From: a virus
Direction: 5' to 3' (one strand)
UHGV virus genome: UHGV-0152719
DNA: 11,057 nt
Shown: in pieces, positions 2,060 through 10,846 of the stretch
Layout of the letters: each line of letters begins with the position of its first letter
How positions within the stretch are numbered: the first letter of the stretch is position 1
Notes under the pieces: model-generated
Told to the model about the DNA's origin: nothing
What the model saw: the letters and a program-made list of their open reading frames with translations, nothing else
Databases searched by the model: none
Program-made: the position numbers and the translations under genes

Positions 2060-2443
2060 TCAACCAATCAACTTATAGCGACCATCCCGTGCATTGCGAC
2101 GTACACGCTCAATCTTGAGGCATAGCGCCGCATCTGGCTTTTTTGGGACAGGTACGCGGCAATATTCAGAAGATCGAGGAATATTGTTTATCCAGTCGAT
2201 CACTTCACTTAAATACCAGGCCTTACGCCCTTCCGTAACCTGTACGCGTTCGGGGAACTCTCCGCGAGCCTCAAGGTTTAGCAATGTGCGACGGCTAAGG
2301 GTAGTAAGTTCCATCACCTGATTCATATCAACAAGGCGTTCACTTAAACGCATTTTGTCAGCAATAGCCTTTAATTCCTCTACTGCTGGATCCGGATACA
2401 TCATTTCGGCAATTGGCTTAAGGTCATTGTAATGATTCTGCAT
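2060..2443 (-). CDS. AlpA-family (excisionase-like) helix-turn-helix DNA-binding protein, 127 aa
   Basis: Motif LTTLSRRTLLNLEARGEFPERVQVTEGRKAWYLSEVIDWI matches the AlpA/phage-excisionase HTH pattern (G-FP ... W..SEV..WI); ATG at 2443 preceded by AAGGGGGA Shine-Dalgarno. Confidence 0.6.
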   Translation of the reverse strand: MQNHYNDLKPIAEMMYPDPAVEELKAIADKMRLSERLVDMNQVMELTTLSRRTLLNLEARGEFPERVQVTEGRKAWYLSEVIDWINNIPRSSEYCRVPVPKKPDAALCLKIERVRRNARDGRYKLIG

Positions 2444-4740: not shown

Positions 4741-4786
4741 TTTTATTTTTACCCCCTCGTTTAAAAAGTTTTGAAATGTGGTGCAC

Positions 4787-5014
4787 CTCCTCTACCTCTC
4801 TACCTAATCATCTTTCAGGTCAGTAATGGCGCGGCTTTCAGATGGGTAGAGGGCTTTCGGGGCCCTCTACCCATCCTCTACCCGCCCCTCACAAATGACC
4901 TTAATCATGGTGGAGGAGGTAGAGGGCTTTTATTTGCCTTCTACCTGGCCCTCTACCTGCTTATCATATTGAATAATATATATTTATTTTCTTTAGGTAG
5001 AGGAGGTAGAGGGC
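4787..5014. repeat. Iteron array with AT-rich core: putative origin of replication
   Basis: Ten copies of an 8-bp motif in both orientations: CCTCTACC at 4789, 4864, 4875, 4950; variants TCTCTACC 4797 and TTCTACC 4939; GGTAGAGG at 4845, 4918, 4996, 5006; three carry the longer form GGTAGAGGGCTTT. AT-rich stretch 4958-4995. Sits immediately 3' of the primase-helicase gene. Confidence 0.65.
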
Positions 5015-5026
5015 TTTTGTCTAAAA

Positions 5027-6781
5027 TTATAAAAACGCGTCGCAATCCTCTGTTGTTGTCACATTGGTTTGCGTAAGTCCTTTAACCCTGCGCGTTATAT
5101 ATTCACATCCGTAAACTTTCGCCGCTGGCTTCATGGCCTTGCTGAAATCAGCCACGTTTAGCGGCTTGCTTCTGCCTGCGTATGCCATAAACGCCAGATA
5201 GACGCGGTAAAGGCTGTTTCTGGTCGTGTACTTCACGGAATCGCCACCGCCACCCATCATCAGGCCGCGCGCTTCCTCCAGAAAATTCAGAAACTGGCAA
5301 AACTCAATAACCGGATCCGTCTGTTGCTTTATCGCCAGTGCTTCTTCACCGTCGCGCTGTTCAATCAACAAATGTCGCGCCTTTTCTGGATCAGCAAAGT
5401 TTGCCAGCAATCTGCGGATAATCACGGGGATTTCAGCCGCGACCTTCTCCGGTAAATCCTTGTCCTTTTCTGCCTCGCTAACGATATTGTCGAAGCGGAA
5501 AATTACGCGACGACGTGACACACCTCCGGCCCGTTCGGTGAATATCATCGGGTTATTGTTGGTAGCCAGCACCACCGCCCTGATTACCGCCGTAAAACGC
5601 TTTTCATATTTCGGGTTTATTTCCACGGGGTCGCCGCCCGTGATTTTCTTGATGCCCGTGCCTTCGCCTGTATATTTCGGCTGGTCAGCCAGGACGATAA
5701 GACGACTCCCGACAACCTGAGCACGCCCACCAGCATCATCAAGCGAAGTCATTTCAGCGCTTACCGTGTTCTGTTTCCCTGCCAGAAGGCTGGCTATGTG
5801 CGTGAATGTACTCTTTCCGCTCCCGCCGTCTCCGGTGGCCTCAATAAACATCTGCCAGTCGTACCGGTTCGCCATAATCATGTACAGCGCGGCACATATA
5901 CGCATCATCTTGCGTGGGTCTTTTCCGGCTGCGTGATCAAGCCATTTATGAAAGTTTGGCGCGTTGTCGCGGATGTTCTCCCCTGGTGCTGGTGGCGTGT
6001 ACTCAATGCCGTTGTGCGTGGTGATCCAGTTCTCCGGCGAGTGCGGGGAAAATTCCCCCGTTTTCAGATTAAGCACACCATTAGTGAACGGTAGCAAATC
6101 GCCAGACGGCTCGCCCATTGGTTCGGCAATAACTTTTAACGCTTCCACGGCGTTATTGATTGCGCGCTTGCTGAAAGTGGCCCTGTGCTCTGAATAGATC
6201 GCCACCATTTCGCGGCTAAGTTCCATTGTGCTGACCGGACACCATACCCCGCCGCGCCATACGTGAACGATTTCACTTTCAGGATGTACGCAAACGCCAT
6301 CAAAGCGATCGGCAAGCAACTGCGCGCGCTCACTGTCCGCCATCTGCGAAAGTTGCGCCTTTTGCTTTACCGGAAGCTCAATGACCAGACCATCAGAAAG
6401 ATTCTGGCGTTCACGGGCCAGATATTCGCGCCAGTTCTGCACCTCCTGGCCGTGCATACCCTCAGGATAAAAATTTGCATCCTGTACGCCTGCTGCCGCC
6501 AGCTTCTGACCAATCGCCTTTATCATTACAGGCGCAAGATATCCGGCCCTGTATATGCGTGCTGATTTTCGGCCTTCCGGCACAATTTGCAGATTATCCA
6601 GTTCGGATAGCTGCTGCTCCCCAAGCCACACAGGAGGCTCATTATCTCCGGCCATACGCGCATCATGTTCCTGCCATTGTTTCGCGTGTGCCCAGGCATC
6701 ACTACCCGCAAAAATAATGACTTCTGTTCCTTTGTGTTTTATGCCGCGTGACTGCTGTTTTACGTTCGGTGCCAGTTTCAT
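5027..6781 (-). CDS. Primase-helicase, phage/plasmid P4-alpha-like (Walker A GDGGSGKS)
   Basis: 584-aa ORF; Walker A motif TGDGGSGKST followed by helicase-like region; N-terminal primase-like portion; typical P4/PICI pri-rep size and position next to iterons; start ATG overlaps upstream gene stop. Confidence 0.85.
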   Translation of the reverse strand: MKLAPNVKQQSRGIKHKGTEVIIFAGSDAWAHAKQWQEHDARMAGDNEPPVWLGEQQLSELDNLQIVPEGRKSARIYRAGYLAPVMIKAIGQKLAAAGVQDANFYPEGMHGQEVQNWREYLARERQNLSDGLVIELPVKQKAQLSQMADSERAQLLADRFDGVCVHPESEIVHVWRGGVWCPVSTMELSREMVAIYSEHRATFSKRAINNAVEALKVIAEPMGEPSGDLLPFTNGVLNLKTGEFSPHSPENWITTHNGIEYTPPAPGENIRDNAPNFHKWLDHAAGKDPRKMMRICAALYMIMANRYDWQMFIEATGDGGSGKSTFTHIASLLAGKQNTVSAEMTSLDDAGGRAQVVGSRLIVLADQPKYTGEGTGIKKITGGDPVEINPKYEKRFTAVIRAVVLATNNNPMIFTERAGGVSRRRVIFRFDNIVSEAEKDKDLPEKVAAEIPVIIRRLLANFADPEKARHLLIEQRDGEEALAIKQQTDPVIEFCQFLNFLEEARGLMMGGGGDSVKYTTRNSLYRVYLAFMAYAGRSKPLNVADFSKAMKPAAKVYGCEYITRRVKGLTQTNVTTTEDCDAFL

Positions 6782-7077
6782 TTTTTACCTCTGAATCCGT
6801 TAATCATGGTTTTCATTTTCTGGATATTTCCCCACGCTTTTTCCCTGCTGATGGGCTTACTGCGGGGTGCGGCATATACCAGGGAAAAATCACGCCGGAA
6901 CTGATAAACAGGCATCACGCAGTCATAGCTATACCCCTCACGGCGGTAAGTGATGCGCCGTTCTGCCACGCCTTTAATCGTTACCGTGCCGCCGTATTTA
7001 TCGCGGTAAATATCGCCGTTCATAAATTCAGGACGAGCGGGGCCGCTGGCATTAACACCAGTATTTTTCATTCCCAT
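6778..7077 (-). CDS. Hypothetical protein (99 aa), translationally coupled to primase
   Basis: ORF whose stop overlaps the primase ATG (ATGA); no recognised family. Confidence 0.5.
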   Translation of the reverse strand: MGMKNTGVNASGPARPEFMNGDIYRDKYGGTVTIKGVAERRITYRREGYSYDCVMPVYQFRRDFSLVYAAPRSKPISREKAWGNIQKMKTMINGFRGKK

Positions 7078-7081
7078 ATAA

Positions 7082-7324
7082 TTAAATTCCGTTTGTGTGG
7101 TGTTTTAATTCGTGAATTTTTTCTAACGCTCTGTTTATCTTGCTGGTCGAAATATCCAGTAATTCAGAAATGGCAAAGTTCAGTCTTGCCGTTGACTCGT
7201 CACGCTCGCAATTTGTCAGCGATTCAAACCAGACGTTAATAATCTCACTTACGGCATTGTTGTAAGATATTGCGCTTTGTGTGAGTTCATTCAGTTCATG
7301 AATCACGCGCTCATTATTGTTCAT
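7082..7324 (-). CDS. Hypothetical protein (80 aa)
   Basis: ORF with GAGGGAGAG Shine-Dalgarno upstream of ATG at 7324; part of a tightly packed minus-strand operon. Confidence 0.5.
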   Translation of the reverse strand: MNNNERVIHELNELTQSAISYNNAVSEIINVWFESLTNCERDESTARLNFAISELLDISTSKINRALEKIHELKHHTNGI

Positions 7325-7505
7325 TGTATTGCTCTCCCTCCGCTATTAACCATGCCGACACATTGCCGGAAAGACGCGCCAGAAGACTGGAAATCGCGGA
7401 TATATCGGCATCCGTAAGTTTGTCAGGGTATACCTCAAGAAGGCGGCAAATGATTTCAACCTGCTGCGCTCTTTCCGCAATTTCGTTTAATGTAAACTCC
7501 TGCAT
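7314..7505 (-). CDS. Hypothetical protein (63 aa)
   Basis: ORF with AAGGGG SD about 9 nt upstream of ATG at 7505; overlaps the next gene by 11 nt. Confidence 0.45.
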   Translation of the reverse strand: MQEFTLNEIAERAQQVEIICRLLEVYPDKLTDADISAISSLLARLSGNVSAWLIAEGEQYNEQ

Positions 7506-7508
7506 TAA

Positions 7509-7691
7509 TTACACCCCTTTTAATTCATGTACTGCTGCAATAATTACATGTGATAAACCTGCTTTACCGGAATTACTGATTAGTGAATCAATCGCCGCTT
7601 GCATATTAACGGCCTTCACGTTCTGCGTTATTCCGATGGTGTAGCCGCGTTTATTAACTGCACGGGCAAATACGCGGAAGGTTTTAAGCAT
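7509..7691 (-). CDS. Hypothetical protein (60 aa)
   Basis: ATG at 7691 overlaps the stop of the upstream 65-aa gene (ATGCTTAA); operon context. Confidence 0.45.
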   Translation of the reverse strand: MLKTFRVFARAVNKRGYTIGITQNVKAVNMQAAIDSLISNSGKAGLSHVIIAAVHELKGV

Positions 7692-7881
7692 GACTCACTC
7701 CCTGGCGGATTTTTGCAGCGAATACAGCAACACAACCGGACGGGCAACGGCTACGCGCTTCGCGTTCCGTCCAGGCGGTTACGTGGATGATTTGAGATTC
7801 TCCGGCACTCAGTGCCAGAAAACGCCACACAAAGGCCGTTTGTGTGTGTACAAGGTGTGGTATATGATTTACAGCAACCAT
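7684..7881 (-). CDS. Hypothetical protein (65 aa), first gene of the minus-strand replication operon
   Basis: Corresponds to the C-terminal 65 codons of the 356-aa track ORF; internal ATG at 7881 is preceded by a canonical AGGAG SD (ctAGGAGccgttATG); the remaining upstream part of the long ORF is low-complexity and antisense to better-supported plus-strand genes. Confidence 0.5.
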   Translation of the reverse strand: MVAVNHIPHLVHTQTAFVWRFLALSAGESQIIHVTAWTEREARSRCPSGCVAVFAAKIRQGVSHA

Positions 7882-8071
7882 AACGGCTCCTAGTTTACGT
7901 TGTTGGTTAGACGCCCCGTATGTGTTCCCAGCACTGCGGGGCGTTGCTCTTTGTATTTCAACAATCCTTTCGGTGTGTTTCATGTTATGAGCACATGAAA
8001 CACACGTCAAGGCTTTTTGTATTTCTTTTTTTGTGTATACTGAAACACACCGATGATTAGGAGTTTCAGAA
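7882..8071. promoter_or_regulatory. Divergent promoter/operator region between the minus-strand replication operon and the plus-strand regulator genes
   Basis: Perfect 12-bp inverted repeat gtgtgtttcatg-(9 bp)-catgaaacacac at 7973-8005 plus a third half-site tgaaacacac at 8041-8050; minus-strand sigma70-like promoter TTGACG (8005-8010) -17 bp- TAACAT (7982-7987) overlapping the palindrome; plus-strand -10-like TATACT at 8036-8041; 8-bp stem hairpin acgccccg...cggggcgt (7911-7944) in the minus-strand leader. Confidence 0.5.
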
Positions 8072-8377
8072 ATGGCAACGGCTAACAAAAACGCAAAATC
8101 ACAACTGACAACTGTCAGAGTCCCACTAGATGTTATGCAAGGGATGGAATCCGTTAAGCTGGACGGTGAAAGCAATGCCGGATTTATCGTAACCGCCATG
8201 CGCGGAGAAATAGCCCGCCGCCAAGCAGAAGGCAGCGGAGAAAATCCCCTTGTGTCGTCACTGGATGCCCTGGCTAAGGTCGAACAAATCGGCATCAAAG
8301 CAGCCGAGGAGATCGGGCAACTCGTCACCGTCGCGCGTGAAGAACTCCAGCGACGCAAGGTCAAAGAGCATGAATAG
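8072..8377 (+). CDS. Putative ribbon-helix-helix-like DNA-binding protein (101 aa), candidate island regulator
   Basis: AGGAG SD 8 nt upstream of ATG; N-terminal TTVRVPLDVMQGMESVKLDGESNAGFIVTAMRGEIARRQ fits a beta-strand/helix/helix Arc/CopG-like pattern (inference only); divergent from the replication operon. Confidence 0.5.
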   Translation: MATANKNAKSQLTTVRVPLDVMQGMESVKLDGESNAGFIVTAMRGEIARRQAEGSGENPLVSSLDALAKVEQIGIKAAEEIGQLVTVAREELQRRKVKEHE

Positions 8378-8434
8378 CCAATATCAGCGCCATAGTTTGA
8401 GGAACGCAGGCGCATTGCTTTACAGGACAGCACC

Positions 8435-8614
8435 ATGAGCGACACAGAATCAACCAAAACACCATCACCAACTCGTAAGAGACGACGCAAAAATATAGCG
8501 CATGAACATGAATCAGAAAGATTCGCACCTTGTTCGTTTGCTCTTGAGAAATTCCTTAAAGAGCACAGGAAAAAGCTCTCGTTGCAAACCTTGGAACGAA
8601 CCAAATCTGACTGA
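8435..8614 (+). CDS. Hypothetical small basic protein (59 aa)
   Basis: Not in the supplied ORF track (below its apparent length cut-off); ATG at 8435 with AGGA-like SD upstream, in line with the preceding gene and followed by an intrinsic terminator; contains a KRRRK basic stretch. Confidence 0.4.
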   Translation: MSDTESTKTPSPTRKRRRKNIAHEHESERFAPCSFALEKFLKEHRKKLSLQTLERTKSD

Positions 8615-8670
8615 TCACATTGCCCACCAGCCGCAAATGTGGCATTGTTGGTGATGCTTTTGTTTTCCCT

Positions 8671-8700
8671 TGTTCCCACTGGCGACCCTTTTGCGGTCGC
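8671..8700 (+). terminator. Rho-independent terminator of the plus-strand two-gene unit
   Basis: ggcgacc-cttttgc-ggtcgcc stem-loop followed by tttgttttg. Confidence 0.6.
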
Positions 8701-8710
8701 CTTTGTTTTG

Positions 8711-9289
8711 TCACTGAATGCGGTTACCAAAGTAAAACTCAGGCTGATATTCACGTATCAGCCTTTTTTCTTCTTCCTCCAGCTCACGCTTTTTGCGCTT
8801 ACATGCCTGTAGCTCCCTCCCCTTCTCGCTGGCACTTATTTGATATTGCTCTTTACGGCGGGAAAAATCCTGTAATGCACCCCACGGGATACCATAAGCC
8901 CCCGTTTTTCTGATACCTGGTATCACATTTCTGAATACCCAGTTACTGAAACGATGAGCAAATGTGCCCGGCGTCGTTGCTTTGCGGCTGCGGGCTATTA
9001 GTTTGTAGAAACCTGACTCAGAGATAATTCTCATATTCTGATTTCCTCCTGGGGTGTAAGTTAAATTTACTCCCTTTTCATCATCATCAAGCATCTGCAA
9101 CGCCGTACGCGAATTGGTTAGTTCCAGCGCAGCACAAACATCTTTTGCAACAAACCACGGATCGCCGTTCAGATACACCACACGAACGTTCACACTATCA
9201 AAGCGCAGAACGACGAGATCACGAATATCGCAGAATTTTTTCACTGGACGAGCGTACCCCTTGCCCGTCACGGCAATATTTTTATTCAT
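8711..9289 (-). CDS. Bro-N domain protein (phage antirepressor-like), 192 aa
   Basis: N-terminal region VVLRFDSVNVRVVYLNGDPWFVAKDVCAALEL...LQMLDDDEKGV matches the Bro-N/antirepressor N-terminal domain pattern; C-terminal charged coiled-coil-like tail. Confidence 0.75.
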   Translation of the reverse strand: MNKNIAVTGKGYARPVKKFCDIRDLVVLRFDSVNVRVVYLNGDPWFVAKDVCAALELTNSRTALQMLDDDEKGVNLTYTPGGNQNMRIISESGFYKLIARSRKATTPGTFAHRFSNWVFRNVIPGIRKTGAYGIPWGALQDFSRRKEQYQISASEKGRELQACKRKKRELEEEEKRLIREYQPEFYFGNRIQ

Positions 9290-9345: not shown

Positions 9346-9603
9346 TTATTGCTGTTTTGTTTTTCCAGGTTTCCATCCAGGATGCCACTCACCACGGATC
9401 CATGCCTGAACCTCTGAAAGTCGATACCCTGCAGCACGTTCACCGATCTTGATACGTCGCGGGAATTTACCTGCCTGCTCCATTTTCCAGCGTGTTGAGT
9501 TTGCCAGCGTGGTAAGTGCTATGCACTCTTTTTCACGAATGAACCGATCAATGTCCTTCATTGTGCGCAAATCGTTTTCATCAACAAGAGAATAAATTGC
9601 CAT
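9346..9603 (-). CDS. alpA: AlpA-family transcriptional regulator / excisionase-like protein
   Basis: 85 aa with HTH IALTTLANSTRWKMEQAGKFPRRIKIGERAAGYRLSEVQAWI typical of AlpA (prophage CP4-57 regulatory protein family); AAGAGG SD; immediately downstream of the integrase. Confidence 0.8.
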   Translation of the reverse strand: MAIYSLVDENDLRTMKDIDRFIREKECIALTTLANSTRWKMEQAGKFPRRIKIGERAAGYRLSEVQAWIRGEWHPGWKPGKTKQQ

Positions 9604-9604
9604 A

Positions 9605-10846
9605 TCACACCACCTCTTTATTAAGCTCGATAACGTTGTTGTTAAATCCTGCTATCGTATTAAGGTAATTAACCCACATATTAAGCACCTCAAGTTTTTT
9701 CTTTATATGCCTGCTTTTATTGTAAACACCAGCAACCCCTTTCACTTTATGACCTAAAAGAAGTTCGACAATATAAGGATCCGCCCCCATATCATTAAGC
9801 GTAGTGGAAAATGTGCGCCTGAAATCATGTATGCACCACAAGCCATTAGTATCATGACCAAGACGCCTGCATATTCTGTTTGCAGCCCCTGTTATTGTCG
9901 CCCTTTGCAAAGCACAACCGACAACATAACCGCAATTTTTTGTTTCTGCGTAAAGATTAACGATCCATTGTTTTATTCCGTCAGGAACAGGCCTTACTAT
10001 AGCCTCCTTGTTTTTGCTGTGCTCTTTTGGGACTGTCCATACCCAGTTTTTTAAATCCCATTCGTCCCAGGTGGATAGCCTCGCCTCCTGCTGTCGGCAA
10101 CCAAACACCAGGCAGATAACCATTATTCTTCGGTTATATATTGATGACAGAGTTAGCAAATTATTACCGTAAGCATAAGACCATACATCAGCGGTTTCAT
10201 TGATATTAAGAACGCGATCCCTTATACCGGATGAGCGCCCGACATAACTTACGTTAATATCTCCAAAGGGATCGCACGCGATGTATTGCCTGACGCGACA
10301 AAAACGCAACGCCTGTTTGATATCAAGAAAAATTGCACCAGACATAACAGGCGCATTTTTTTTGATCCTGTCAAAGACGGTAAGCCATGTGTGTAATTTG
10401 CACTGTTCTATAGCCATATCACCGATATAGGGGAAGATATGCTTTTCAAATCGTTTTATTAAATATTCATGCTCTTTTCTGGCTGTTGTGGCGTGATTGT
10501 CGTACCAGTAAAACAGCGCATCCCTTACGGTCACTGGTTGCATAGTTTTTTCGGCAGCAAGTTTTATTTGCCTGCGGGGGTCCAGATTTTCAGCCAGCCA
10601 TTCACGGCACTGATCACGCATGCGCCTGGCCGTTGCAAGAGACATGTCAGGATAGCGACCAAGTGTAAGCCATACCGGAGGGGATTCCCTGCCACCAAGA
10701 CGATAGTAAAAAACAAAGCTGATCCCCCCAACCATGCTTACACGCACAGACAACCCGCGCCCATCCGCTATTGTTTTTTGTTTGTCCTGCCGTTTTCCGA
10801 CAAGACTCTTTAACAGTTTGTCACTGAGTTTGTTTTCAATAGCCAT
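9605..10846 (-). CDS. int: Tyrosine site-specific integrase, P4-type
   Basis: 413 aa; N-terminal P4-integrase-like arm-binding region (MAIENKLSDKLLKSL...GRGLSVRV); catalytic-domain motifs including HDFRRTFST and the GVAGVYNKS tyrosine region; GAGGG SD upstream. Confidence 0.9.
   Translation of the reverse strand: MAIENKLSDKLLKSLVGKRQDKQKTIADGRGLSVRVSMVGGISFVFYYRLGGRESPPVWLTLGRYPDMSLATARRMRDQCREWLAENLDPRRQIKLAAEKTMQPVTVRDALFYWYDNHATTARKEHEYLIKRFEKHIFPYIGDMAIEQCKLHTWLTVFDRIKKNAPVMSGAIFLDIKQALRFCRVRQYIACDPFGDINVSYVGRSSGIRDRVLNINETADVWSYAYGNNLLTLSSIYNRRIMVICLVFGCRQQEARLSTWDEWDLKNWVWTVPKEHSKNKEAIVRPVPDGIKQWIVNLYAETKNCGYVVGCALQRATITGAANRICRRLGHDTNGLWCIHDFRRTFSTTLNDMGADPYIVELLLGHKVKGVAGVYNKSRHIKKKLEVLNMWVNYLNTIAGFNNNVIELNKEVV

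Follow-up and report, generated by a model that had tools for sequence, protein, structure and literature searches.

The stretch of DNA analysed here, below called the window, comprises 11,057 bp of the virus genome UHGV-0152719 and contains five small open reading frames (ORFs) directly in front of a primase gene. Most probably, these ORFs lie next to the promoter in the early (replication) operon of a phage-inducible chromosomal island (PICI), an operon laid out like the left operon of satellite P4; the biochemical activities proposed below for the encoded proteins are advanced with less confidence. The original prediction for this DNA described the ORFs as a tightly coupled but unassigned accessory cluster at positions 6778-7881. 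The coordinates and all three junctions quoted with them were found to be exact, and the chain of overlaps and short gaps does lead into the primase. ORF5 and ORF1, however, fall into the named families NF033153 and PF13973, respectively, and all five proteins have PHROG families, which contradicts the statement that no family could be recognised. The absence of an assigned function stands for ORF2-4, whose PHROG families are of unknown function.

All five genes are located on the minus strand in the order ORF5 (7684-7881; 65 amino acids), ORF4 (7509-7691; 183 nt, 60 amino acids), ORF3 (7314-7505; 63 amino acids), ORF2 (7082-7324; 80 amino acids), and ORF1 (6778-7077; 99 amino acids). They are followed on the same strand by the replicase gene (5027-6781), which encodes a P4-family primase/superfamily 3 helicase (TIGR01613, E-value 3e-32; Pfam D5_N, DUF5906, and Pox_D5). 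The stop of ORF5 and the start of ORF4 share an 8-nt overlap, ATGCTTAA (7684-7691); ORF4 and ORF3 are 3 nt apart; ORF3 shares its last 11 nt with ORF2 (7314-7324); a gap of 4 nt separates ORF2 from ORF1; and the stop of ORF1 is joined to the start of the primase gene as ATGA (6778-6781). Each ORF starts with ATG and is preceded by a purine-rich motif resembling a Shine-Dalgarno (SD) sequence, which is weak before ORF1. The ratios of non-synonymous to synonymous substitution rates (dN/dS), calculated against the EDL933 homologues at dS of 0.2-1.5, are 0.12 (ORF5), 0.20 (ORF4), 0.30 (ORF3), 0.22 (ORF2), and 0.26 (ORF1). Given these low values, the five ORFs are real protein-coding genes under purifying selection.

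This selection bears directly on the notion that the small ORFs are only translated spacers, which guard against Rho-dependent polarity before the primase while their peptides are functionless. Such a role would agree with the report that P4 kil/eta, when translated, keeps transcription from terminating prematurely (PMC10111431), with the annotation of P1 icd as required for ant expression, and with the conservation of overlapping junctions across loci. It is contradicted by the dN/dS range of all five proteins, and neither the confident predicted fold of ORF4 (predicted local distance difference test, pLDDT, 94) nor the conservation of the families across islands fits a functionless peptide. 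It would surprise us greatly if the spacer notion were correct.

ORF5 matches the NCBIfam family NF033153 with 63.7 bits (cut-off 25; E-value 1.2e-17; residues 17-60). Comparison of a profile of ORF5 homologues with P1 Icd by hhalign gave a probability of 95.6% (E-value 1.1e-8; 38% identity over 45 columns), and P1 Icd itself matches NF033153 (3.4e-14). In P4, the NF033153 domain is found at the C-terminus of the old "cI ORF", the eta/kil frame (E-value 7.8e-21), the last 65 residues of which align end to end with the 65-residue ORF5. These residues are Kil, as reportedly described by Forti et al. (1999). Judged by these matches, ORF5 is a homologue both of P1 Icd and of the C-terminus of P4 Kil/Eta. 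Inhibition of host cell division or toxicity upon expression is on record for both, in the record annotation for P1 Icd and in PMC10111431 for P4 Kil. A profile search of the genome contigs with the Icd alignment revealed a single locus, and the ORF5 match among GenBank phages was one 16.5-kb "induced prophage".

The ATG of ORF5 at 7881 has AGGAG 5 nt upstream and is the same start that the Prokaryotic Genome Annotation Pipeline (PGAP) gives to the homologues. Above this ATG the frame remains open for 291 codons, which makes a GTG-started ORF of 356 amino acids (7684-8754, minus strand). The long frame was considered as an Eta-like extension and rejected: it has no family match beyond its last 60 residues and is antisense to two conserved plus-strand genes. 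The open stretch upstream of the ATG resembles an antisense shadow. In some PGAP records, upstream stretches of this kind are labelled Icd-like or Ash pseudogenes. A terminator-like hairpin with a T-rich tract was observed inside the coding sequence of ORF5 (7826-7846, minus strand); it recalls the termination site within P4 kil.

The conservation of the array was examined in 89 loci, made up of 9 annotated ones and 80 from IMG/VR recovered with the DUF4222 profile. Wherever the array was complete, the Icd-like gene was the first. The order Icd, ORF4, ORF3, ORF2, DUF4222 was present in 44 of the 89 loci, and the arrays of the remaining loci were combinations of a few families, such as Icd, ORF2, DUF4222; Icd, a 70-residue protein, DUF4222; and Icd, ORF3, a 154-residue protein, ORF2, DUF4222. 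Distances at the junctions were mostly -8, -1, 0, +5, +17, and -11 nt. The 1.25-kb region occurs, at least in part, in 1377 of 5426 complete Escherichia coli genomes. In EcCIEDL933 and a tRNA-Pro island, this five-gene array recurs with equal gene lengths next to a different integrase, attachment site, and replicase type. Instead of the accessory or variable cargo that had been predicted, the array as a whole is a core module that E. coli PICIs conserve, the prototypes EcCICFT073 and EcCIEDL933 among them, and no defence system was identified in it by PADLOC.

Variability is nevertheless present in one part of the module. Comparison of the window with locus L004 gave 100% identity on both sides of the segment between approximately 7050 and 7700 and 38-90% within it. 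The divergent segment (about 650 bp) comprises ORF2-ORF3-ORF4 and the first codons of ORF1, and dS inside it is about 1-1.6. Because the drop in identity is confined to this segment, the module has fixed ends and an exchangeable ORF4-ORF3-ORF2 cassette, and is not a cargo slot. By these comparisons, the array is the usual front end of the E. coli PICI replication operon, of which the window carries a new allele combination.

ORF1, the last gene of the array, matches Pfam PF13973 (DUF4222) with 83.2 bits (gathering threshold 27; E-value 9.3e-24; residues 16-67) and belongs to phrog_285. In 87 of the 89 loci, the DUF4222 gene and the replicase gene are joined stop to start as ATGA. The replicases of the surveyed islands are of three kinds: D5_N/DUF5906 primases, DUF927 proteins, and AAA_25 RepA-like helicases. 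Common to all three is an N-terminal domain of about 125 residues (MKLAPNVK…EVIIFAGSDAWAHAKQW…) with no Pfam match, which is encoded at 6400-6781 (minus strand) in the window, at 8603-9082 in L001, and at 3094-3573 in L005; in each type it is this domain that DUF4222 precedes by the ATGA overlap. A short DUF4222 gene is also located beside xis in the lambdoid helper-type prophage of CFT073 (L009, 15192-15431), so the family is not restricted to satellites.

The three genes between these ends encode members of orphan families: phrog_3672 (ORF4), phrog_1478 (ORF3), and phrog_5796, which is related to phrog_2196 (ORF2). Their homologues among 5.8 billion proteins are only "hypothetical proteins" of Escherichia and Shigella, and no match was obtained for them in Pfam, NCBIfam, PADLOC, or the Protein Data Bank (PDB). 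Sequence and profile searches of PDB gave nothing for any of the five proteins, none of which matched a component model of PADLOC-DB 2.0 at E-values up to 1. Searches of GenBank phages returned no DNA match and no protein match for ORF1-ORF4 (ORF1 by tblastn). The confident ORF4 model has a beta-beta-alpha-beta fold, which is similar to eL20/LX and to a large number of tiny, uncharacterised proteins of phages and is uninformative. ORF4 was also tried as a diverged Icd paralogue because of the common beta-beta-alpha-beta pattern; BLASTP and hhalign, however, found nothing. ORF3 is helical by the look of its sequence, and a homologue with 52% identity directly follows the Icd-like gene in EcCICFT073. 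The AlphaFold2 model of ORF2 (pLDDT 78) consists of two long helices forming a hairpin, for which Foldseek returned non-specific matches to generic helical hairpins. The ORF2 family is divergent, is located just upstream of DUF4222 in most variants, and has a conserved W..L..NE(R)D motif; the profile of the ORF2 allele retrieved a single 50%-identity cluster among 1.84 billion representatives.

Experiments with a gene set of similar layout have been described for a prophage-encoded locus of programmed cell death in E. coli ECOR61, which is set off by orf24, an accessory gene of a phage. The Tn5 insertions that suppressed the toxicity hit an Icd-like gene and two hypothetical genes, 192 and 186 nt long (Silas et al., bioRxiv 10.1101/2023.04.06.535777). 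Six linked genes, ending in a primase, were all needed for a muted effect in a lab strain, and deletion of the Icd-like gene abolished it (bioRxiv 10.1101/2023.04.06.535777). The Icd-like gene of ECOR61 overlaps the 186-nt gene by 8 nt, and the latter overlaps the 192-nt gene by 1 nt. The EDL933-type ORF3, ORF4, and Icd-like genes are equal to these in lengths and overlaps, a match made by geometry and annotation, while in the window ORF4 is shorter (183 nt) and separated from ORF3 by 3 nt.

By analogy, a toxicity that needs the Icd-like gene and five linked genes including the primase may be counted in favour of a coupled replication operon. The same suppressors, in genes with the lengths and overlaps of the EDL933-type array, could also mean that the Icd-like gene with ORF4 and ORF3, or the whole module, is primarily an abortive-infection or superinfection-exclusion switch, which is triggered by a protein of an incoming phage and whose cassette was diversified by an arms race; the exchange of ORF4-ORF3-ORF2 in an otherwise identical backbone agrees with this. 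The ECOR61 link, however, is one of gene geometry and annotation, the Tn5 insertions in the ORF3- and ORF4-like genes may be polar on downstream genes, and the reconstituted effect was muted. None of the five proteins had a PADLOC hit, and the module is fixed in the replication operon of every PICI examined, including those with the minimal set Icd, ORF2, DUF4222. Its fixed position there is in keeping with a life-cycle function, toxicity being a by-product of mis-induction, and we consider a primary role in abortive infection or exclusion unlikely. The anti-phage cargo proposed in the original prediction retains indirect support from the preprint, as far as phage-triggered toxicity is concerned, but has no PADLOC match; moreover, the P4 defence hotspot gop-beta-cII adjoins int, away from the left-operon position. 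A related speculation, to which we also give only a small chance, is that the Icd-like gene and ORF4-ORF3(-ORF2) form a phage-sensing kill switch, the alleles of which set the triggering phage proteins (for example, orf24 of the T7 group), and that a YlcI/YnfO-family protein with three operators is the missing repressor of Gram-negative PICIs. If the ECOR61 link holds true, the operon would be a widespread phage-triggered defence.

The gene order of the window is int, AlpA, Bro-N, divergent YlcI/YnfO, the five ORFs, primase, and iterons. The integration gene of the PICI, int, is located at 9605-10846, the AlpA-family gene (PF05930) at 9346-9603, and the gene for the Bro-N protein, upstream of the array, at 8711-9289. 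The YlcI/YnfO-family gene (8072-8377, plus strand; 101 amino acids; NF041551, E-value 1.6e-17; phrog_6522, E-value 1.5e-64) is divergent from the operon and is followed by a basic ORF of 57-59 residues (8435-8614, plus strand). This basic ORF (…KRRRKNIAHEHESERFAPCSFALEKFLKEHRKK…) is kept at 7243-7416 in L010 and at approximately 10400-10580 (plus strand) in L001; it is annotated in CFT073 and unannotated in EDL933, where PGAP calls an opposite-strand ORF of 247 residues without a family match. Directly downstream of the primase stop, about 13 GGTAGAGG iterons in both orientations (4785-5017) flank an AT-rich stretch (4965-4995); this field is presumably the replication origin (ori) of the island. 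Past the iterons there are genes for a single-stranded DNA-binding protein (SSB), a lambda-E-type capsid protein and a decoration protein, a second AlpA-family protein of 127 amino acids (2060-2443, minus strand; PF05930), and the small terminase subunit. In the late region, the second AlpA-like gene has the decoration gene on one side and the small terminase gene on the other; capsid, decoration, and terS are the only late genes present.

By gene content, the window is a Gram-negative PICI satellite. Namely, int, alpA, and pri are co-oriented, the ori lies downstream of pri, the size is in the range of about 10-15 kb, and tail and lysis genes are absent; the division into integration, Bro, replication, and late segments is that of Gram-negative PICIs (PMC10111431; PMC6092414). 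The genes sid, delta, and psu of P4-like satellites were not found among the called genes. Near-identical elements in sequenced genomes, L003 (3001-13843), L004, and L093 (2527-14879), interrupt the portal gene of a lambdoid prophage, in the order Nu1, gpA, gpW, N-terminal part of portal, island, C-terminal part of portal, and S49 peptidase; the window itself, the reverse complement of the ENA metagenome scaffold WENC17-2_SAMN06111978_METAG-scaffold_1203, ends close to the island borders. The name helper-embedded PICI, HE-PICI, is given to PICIs that reside in a late gene of a prophage (PMC10111431), and since near-identical copies of it sit within the lambdoid portal gene, the element of the window is of this kind. 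The lambdoid prophage hosting the island is presumed to be its helper.

This setting, together with the P4 parallel, raises the question of whether the helper phage is the target of at least one of ORF2-4, which could derepress or induce it, as P4 epsilon does, or interfere with its reproduction. P4 epsilon (PF25738, helper derepression) comes immediately after the Icd-like kil/eta frame and overlaps it by 8 nt, as ORF4 does ORF5, the element is embedded in its presumed helper, and EcCICFT073 interferes with lambda through genes that were unidentified as of 2018. The expectation in the original prediction that this position holds a derepression gene in satellites is therefore borne out for P4, but ORF2-4 have no homology to epsilon or to Ash proteins. 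The Bro-N protein is also a more conventional antirepressor candidate than ORF2-4, and the known interference genes of PICIs are located in the late region. A helper-directed role of these genes appears quite improbable.

The sequence upstream of ORF5 contains a single sigma-70-like site on the correct strand, TTGACG-17-TAACAT (8010-7982, minus strand), which was located by a consensus scan and keeps its position in L004, L002, and L007. The decamer GTGTGTTTCA has three exact copies in the whole window, at 7973-7982 (plus strand), 7996-8005 (minus strand), and 8041-8050 (minus strand), all within 7973-8050, and these copies are candidate operators. A perfect palindrome with 13-nt arms, made up of the first two, covers the -10 and -35 elements, and the third sits at what is probably the promoter of the YlcI/YnfO gene on the opposite strand. 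The repeat motif changes with the YlcI/YnfO allele, being GTGCGATTCA in L002 and GTGTAAGACA in L007. Because motif and allele co-vary, as would a repressor and its operators, the YlcI/YnfO protein is a candidate repressor; its gene has the same divergent position in EcCICFT073 and other loci, and by eye its N-terminus looks ribbon-helix-helix-like.

Between this putative promoter and ORF5, the leader (7882-7944, minus strand) consists of a conserved hairpin (7911-7944) and 29 nt (7882-7910) to the ATG. The 30 nt before the ATG (7882-7911, which includes the final base of the hairpin) are identical in all five aligned loci and the flanks are diverged. RNAalifold predicted 11 pairs in the hairpin, including one compensatory change from C-G to A-U in two of the five sequences, which is a small sample. 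The hairpin and the invariant 30 nt give a weak hint of a regulatory element acting at the RNA level. RNA immunity of the C4/CI type was considered as well and rejected: no match to Rfam C4 or isrK was obtained in the window at E-values up to 1, and two hits to miRNA families were artefacts of the ori/iteron palindromes.

We propose the following course of events for the replication operon. Transcription would most likely start at the sigma-70 promoter under control of the palindromic GTGTGTTTCA pair, with the YlcI/YnfO protein, at whose own likely promoter the third copy lies, as the candidate repressor. Upon induction of the island, ribosomes would load at the strong SD sequence of ORF5 and would be handed along the 8-nt overlap, the 3-nt gap, the 11-nt overlap, the 4-nt gap, and the ATGA to the primase. 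Because ribosomes would pass along these overlapping and abutting junctions, synthesis of the primase would be tied to translation of the small genes; such coupling logic is documented for the icd-ant1 pair of P1 and for kil/eta of the P4 left operon. The Icd/Kil-type ORF5 product would be made first and may arrest host division or growth for host takeover. DUF4222, and probably ORF2, could be fixed partners of the replicase that act with its conserved N-terminal domain, and the exchangeable ORF4-ORF3 pair may modulate or enable the toxicity linked to Icd.

Several points weigh against this scheme. No homology could be detected between ORF2, ORF3, ORF4, or DUF4222 and the P4 proteins epsilon, orf151, and cnr, and a cell-division target of ORF5 is an assumption carried over from P1 and P4. 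The profile and structure checks that had been suggested for these ORFs tied ORF5 to P1 Icd by hhalign, but the predicted folds of ORF4 and ORF2 offer no clue to function. DUF4222 served as the seed of the survey, its set of loci is redundant, and ORFs were chained heuristically. The proposed promoter, operators, and repressor were derived from consensus and comparison, while the published activator and master regulator of Gram-negative PICIs is AlpA, and PMC6092414 calls the global repressor unclear.

The module deserves attention as it is very common in E. coli and sits where the satellite switches from silence to replication. DUF4222 as the fixed partner of three replicase types and the swapping of the middle genes as a cassette are testable ideas, and PICIs, P4, and P1 may have in common an "Icd-first, translationally coupled" design.

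The left operon of P4 comprises vis, eta/kil (Icd-like), epsilon, orf151, cnr (DUF5375), and alpha and has two 8-nt overlaps. The array of the window is similar to it in that it opens with an Icd-like frame, links small ORFs through 8-nt overlaps, and has a protein of about 100 residues directly before the P4-family primase; ORF5 and P4 Kil both have 65 residues and both match NF033153. Homology of ORF1-4 to epsilon, orf151, and cnr was also considered and rejected: the N-terminus of orf151 gave a BLAST E-value of 0.09 and an hhalign probability of 2% against DUF4222, and the other comparisons gave nothing. In the absence of such homology, the parallel is positional except for the Icd-like protein and the primase. 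Unlike P4, the window has no detected CI/C4 RNA and no N-terminal extension of the Ash/Eta type; the RNA immunity of P4 appears to be replaced by a divergently encoded regulatory protein and its operators. AlpA, Pri-Rep, and Int are the only components common to PICIs and P4 in the list given by Fillol-Salom et al. (2018; PMC6092414), and on the evidence of the profile matches the Icd-like gene is a fourth.

The immI operon of P1 consists of c4, icd, and ant1/ant2, with icd overlapping ant1 by ATGA. The resemblance lies in ORF5, an Icd homologue encoded by a small first ORF that overlaps the next gene. In P1, however, the next gene encodes an antirepressor, while ORF5 precedes orphan proteins and a replicase, and no C4 RNA was detected.

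The closest counterparts are those of the prototype PICIs, in which the small genes of the array are treated only as hypothetical proteins, as far as the cited passages of PMC6092414 and PMC10111431 go. When AlpA is over-expressed in EcCICFT073, replication runs away in a pri-dependent manner and viability is lost (PMC6092414). EcCICFT073 and EcCIEDL933 have the same gene order as the window: int, alpA, Bro or divergent YlcI/YnfO, Icd-like, small ORFs, DUF4222, replicase, SSB, and capsid. In EcCICFT073, the array consists of Icd, an ORF3-like gene, two halves of the 154-residue family, an ORF2-family gene, DUF4222, and the primase. The five-gene architecture of EcCIEDL933 is identical to that of the window, with 57-97% protein identity per gene. 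The window differs from both islands in that it carries another ORF4-ORF3-ORF2 allele and belongs to the portal-embedded (HE-PICI) group.

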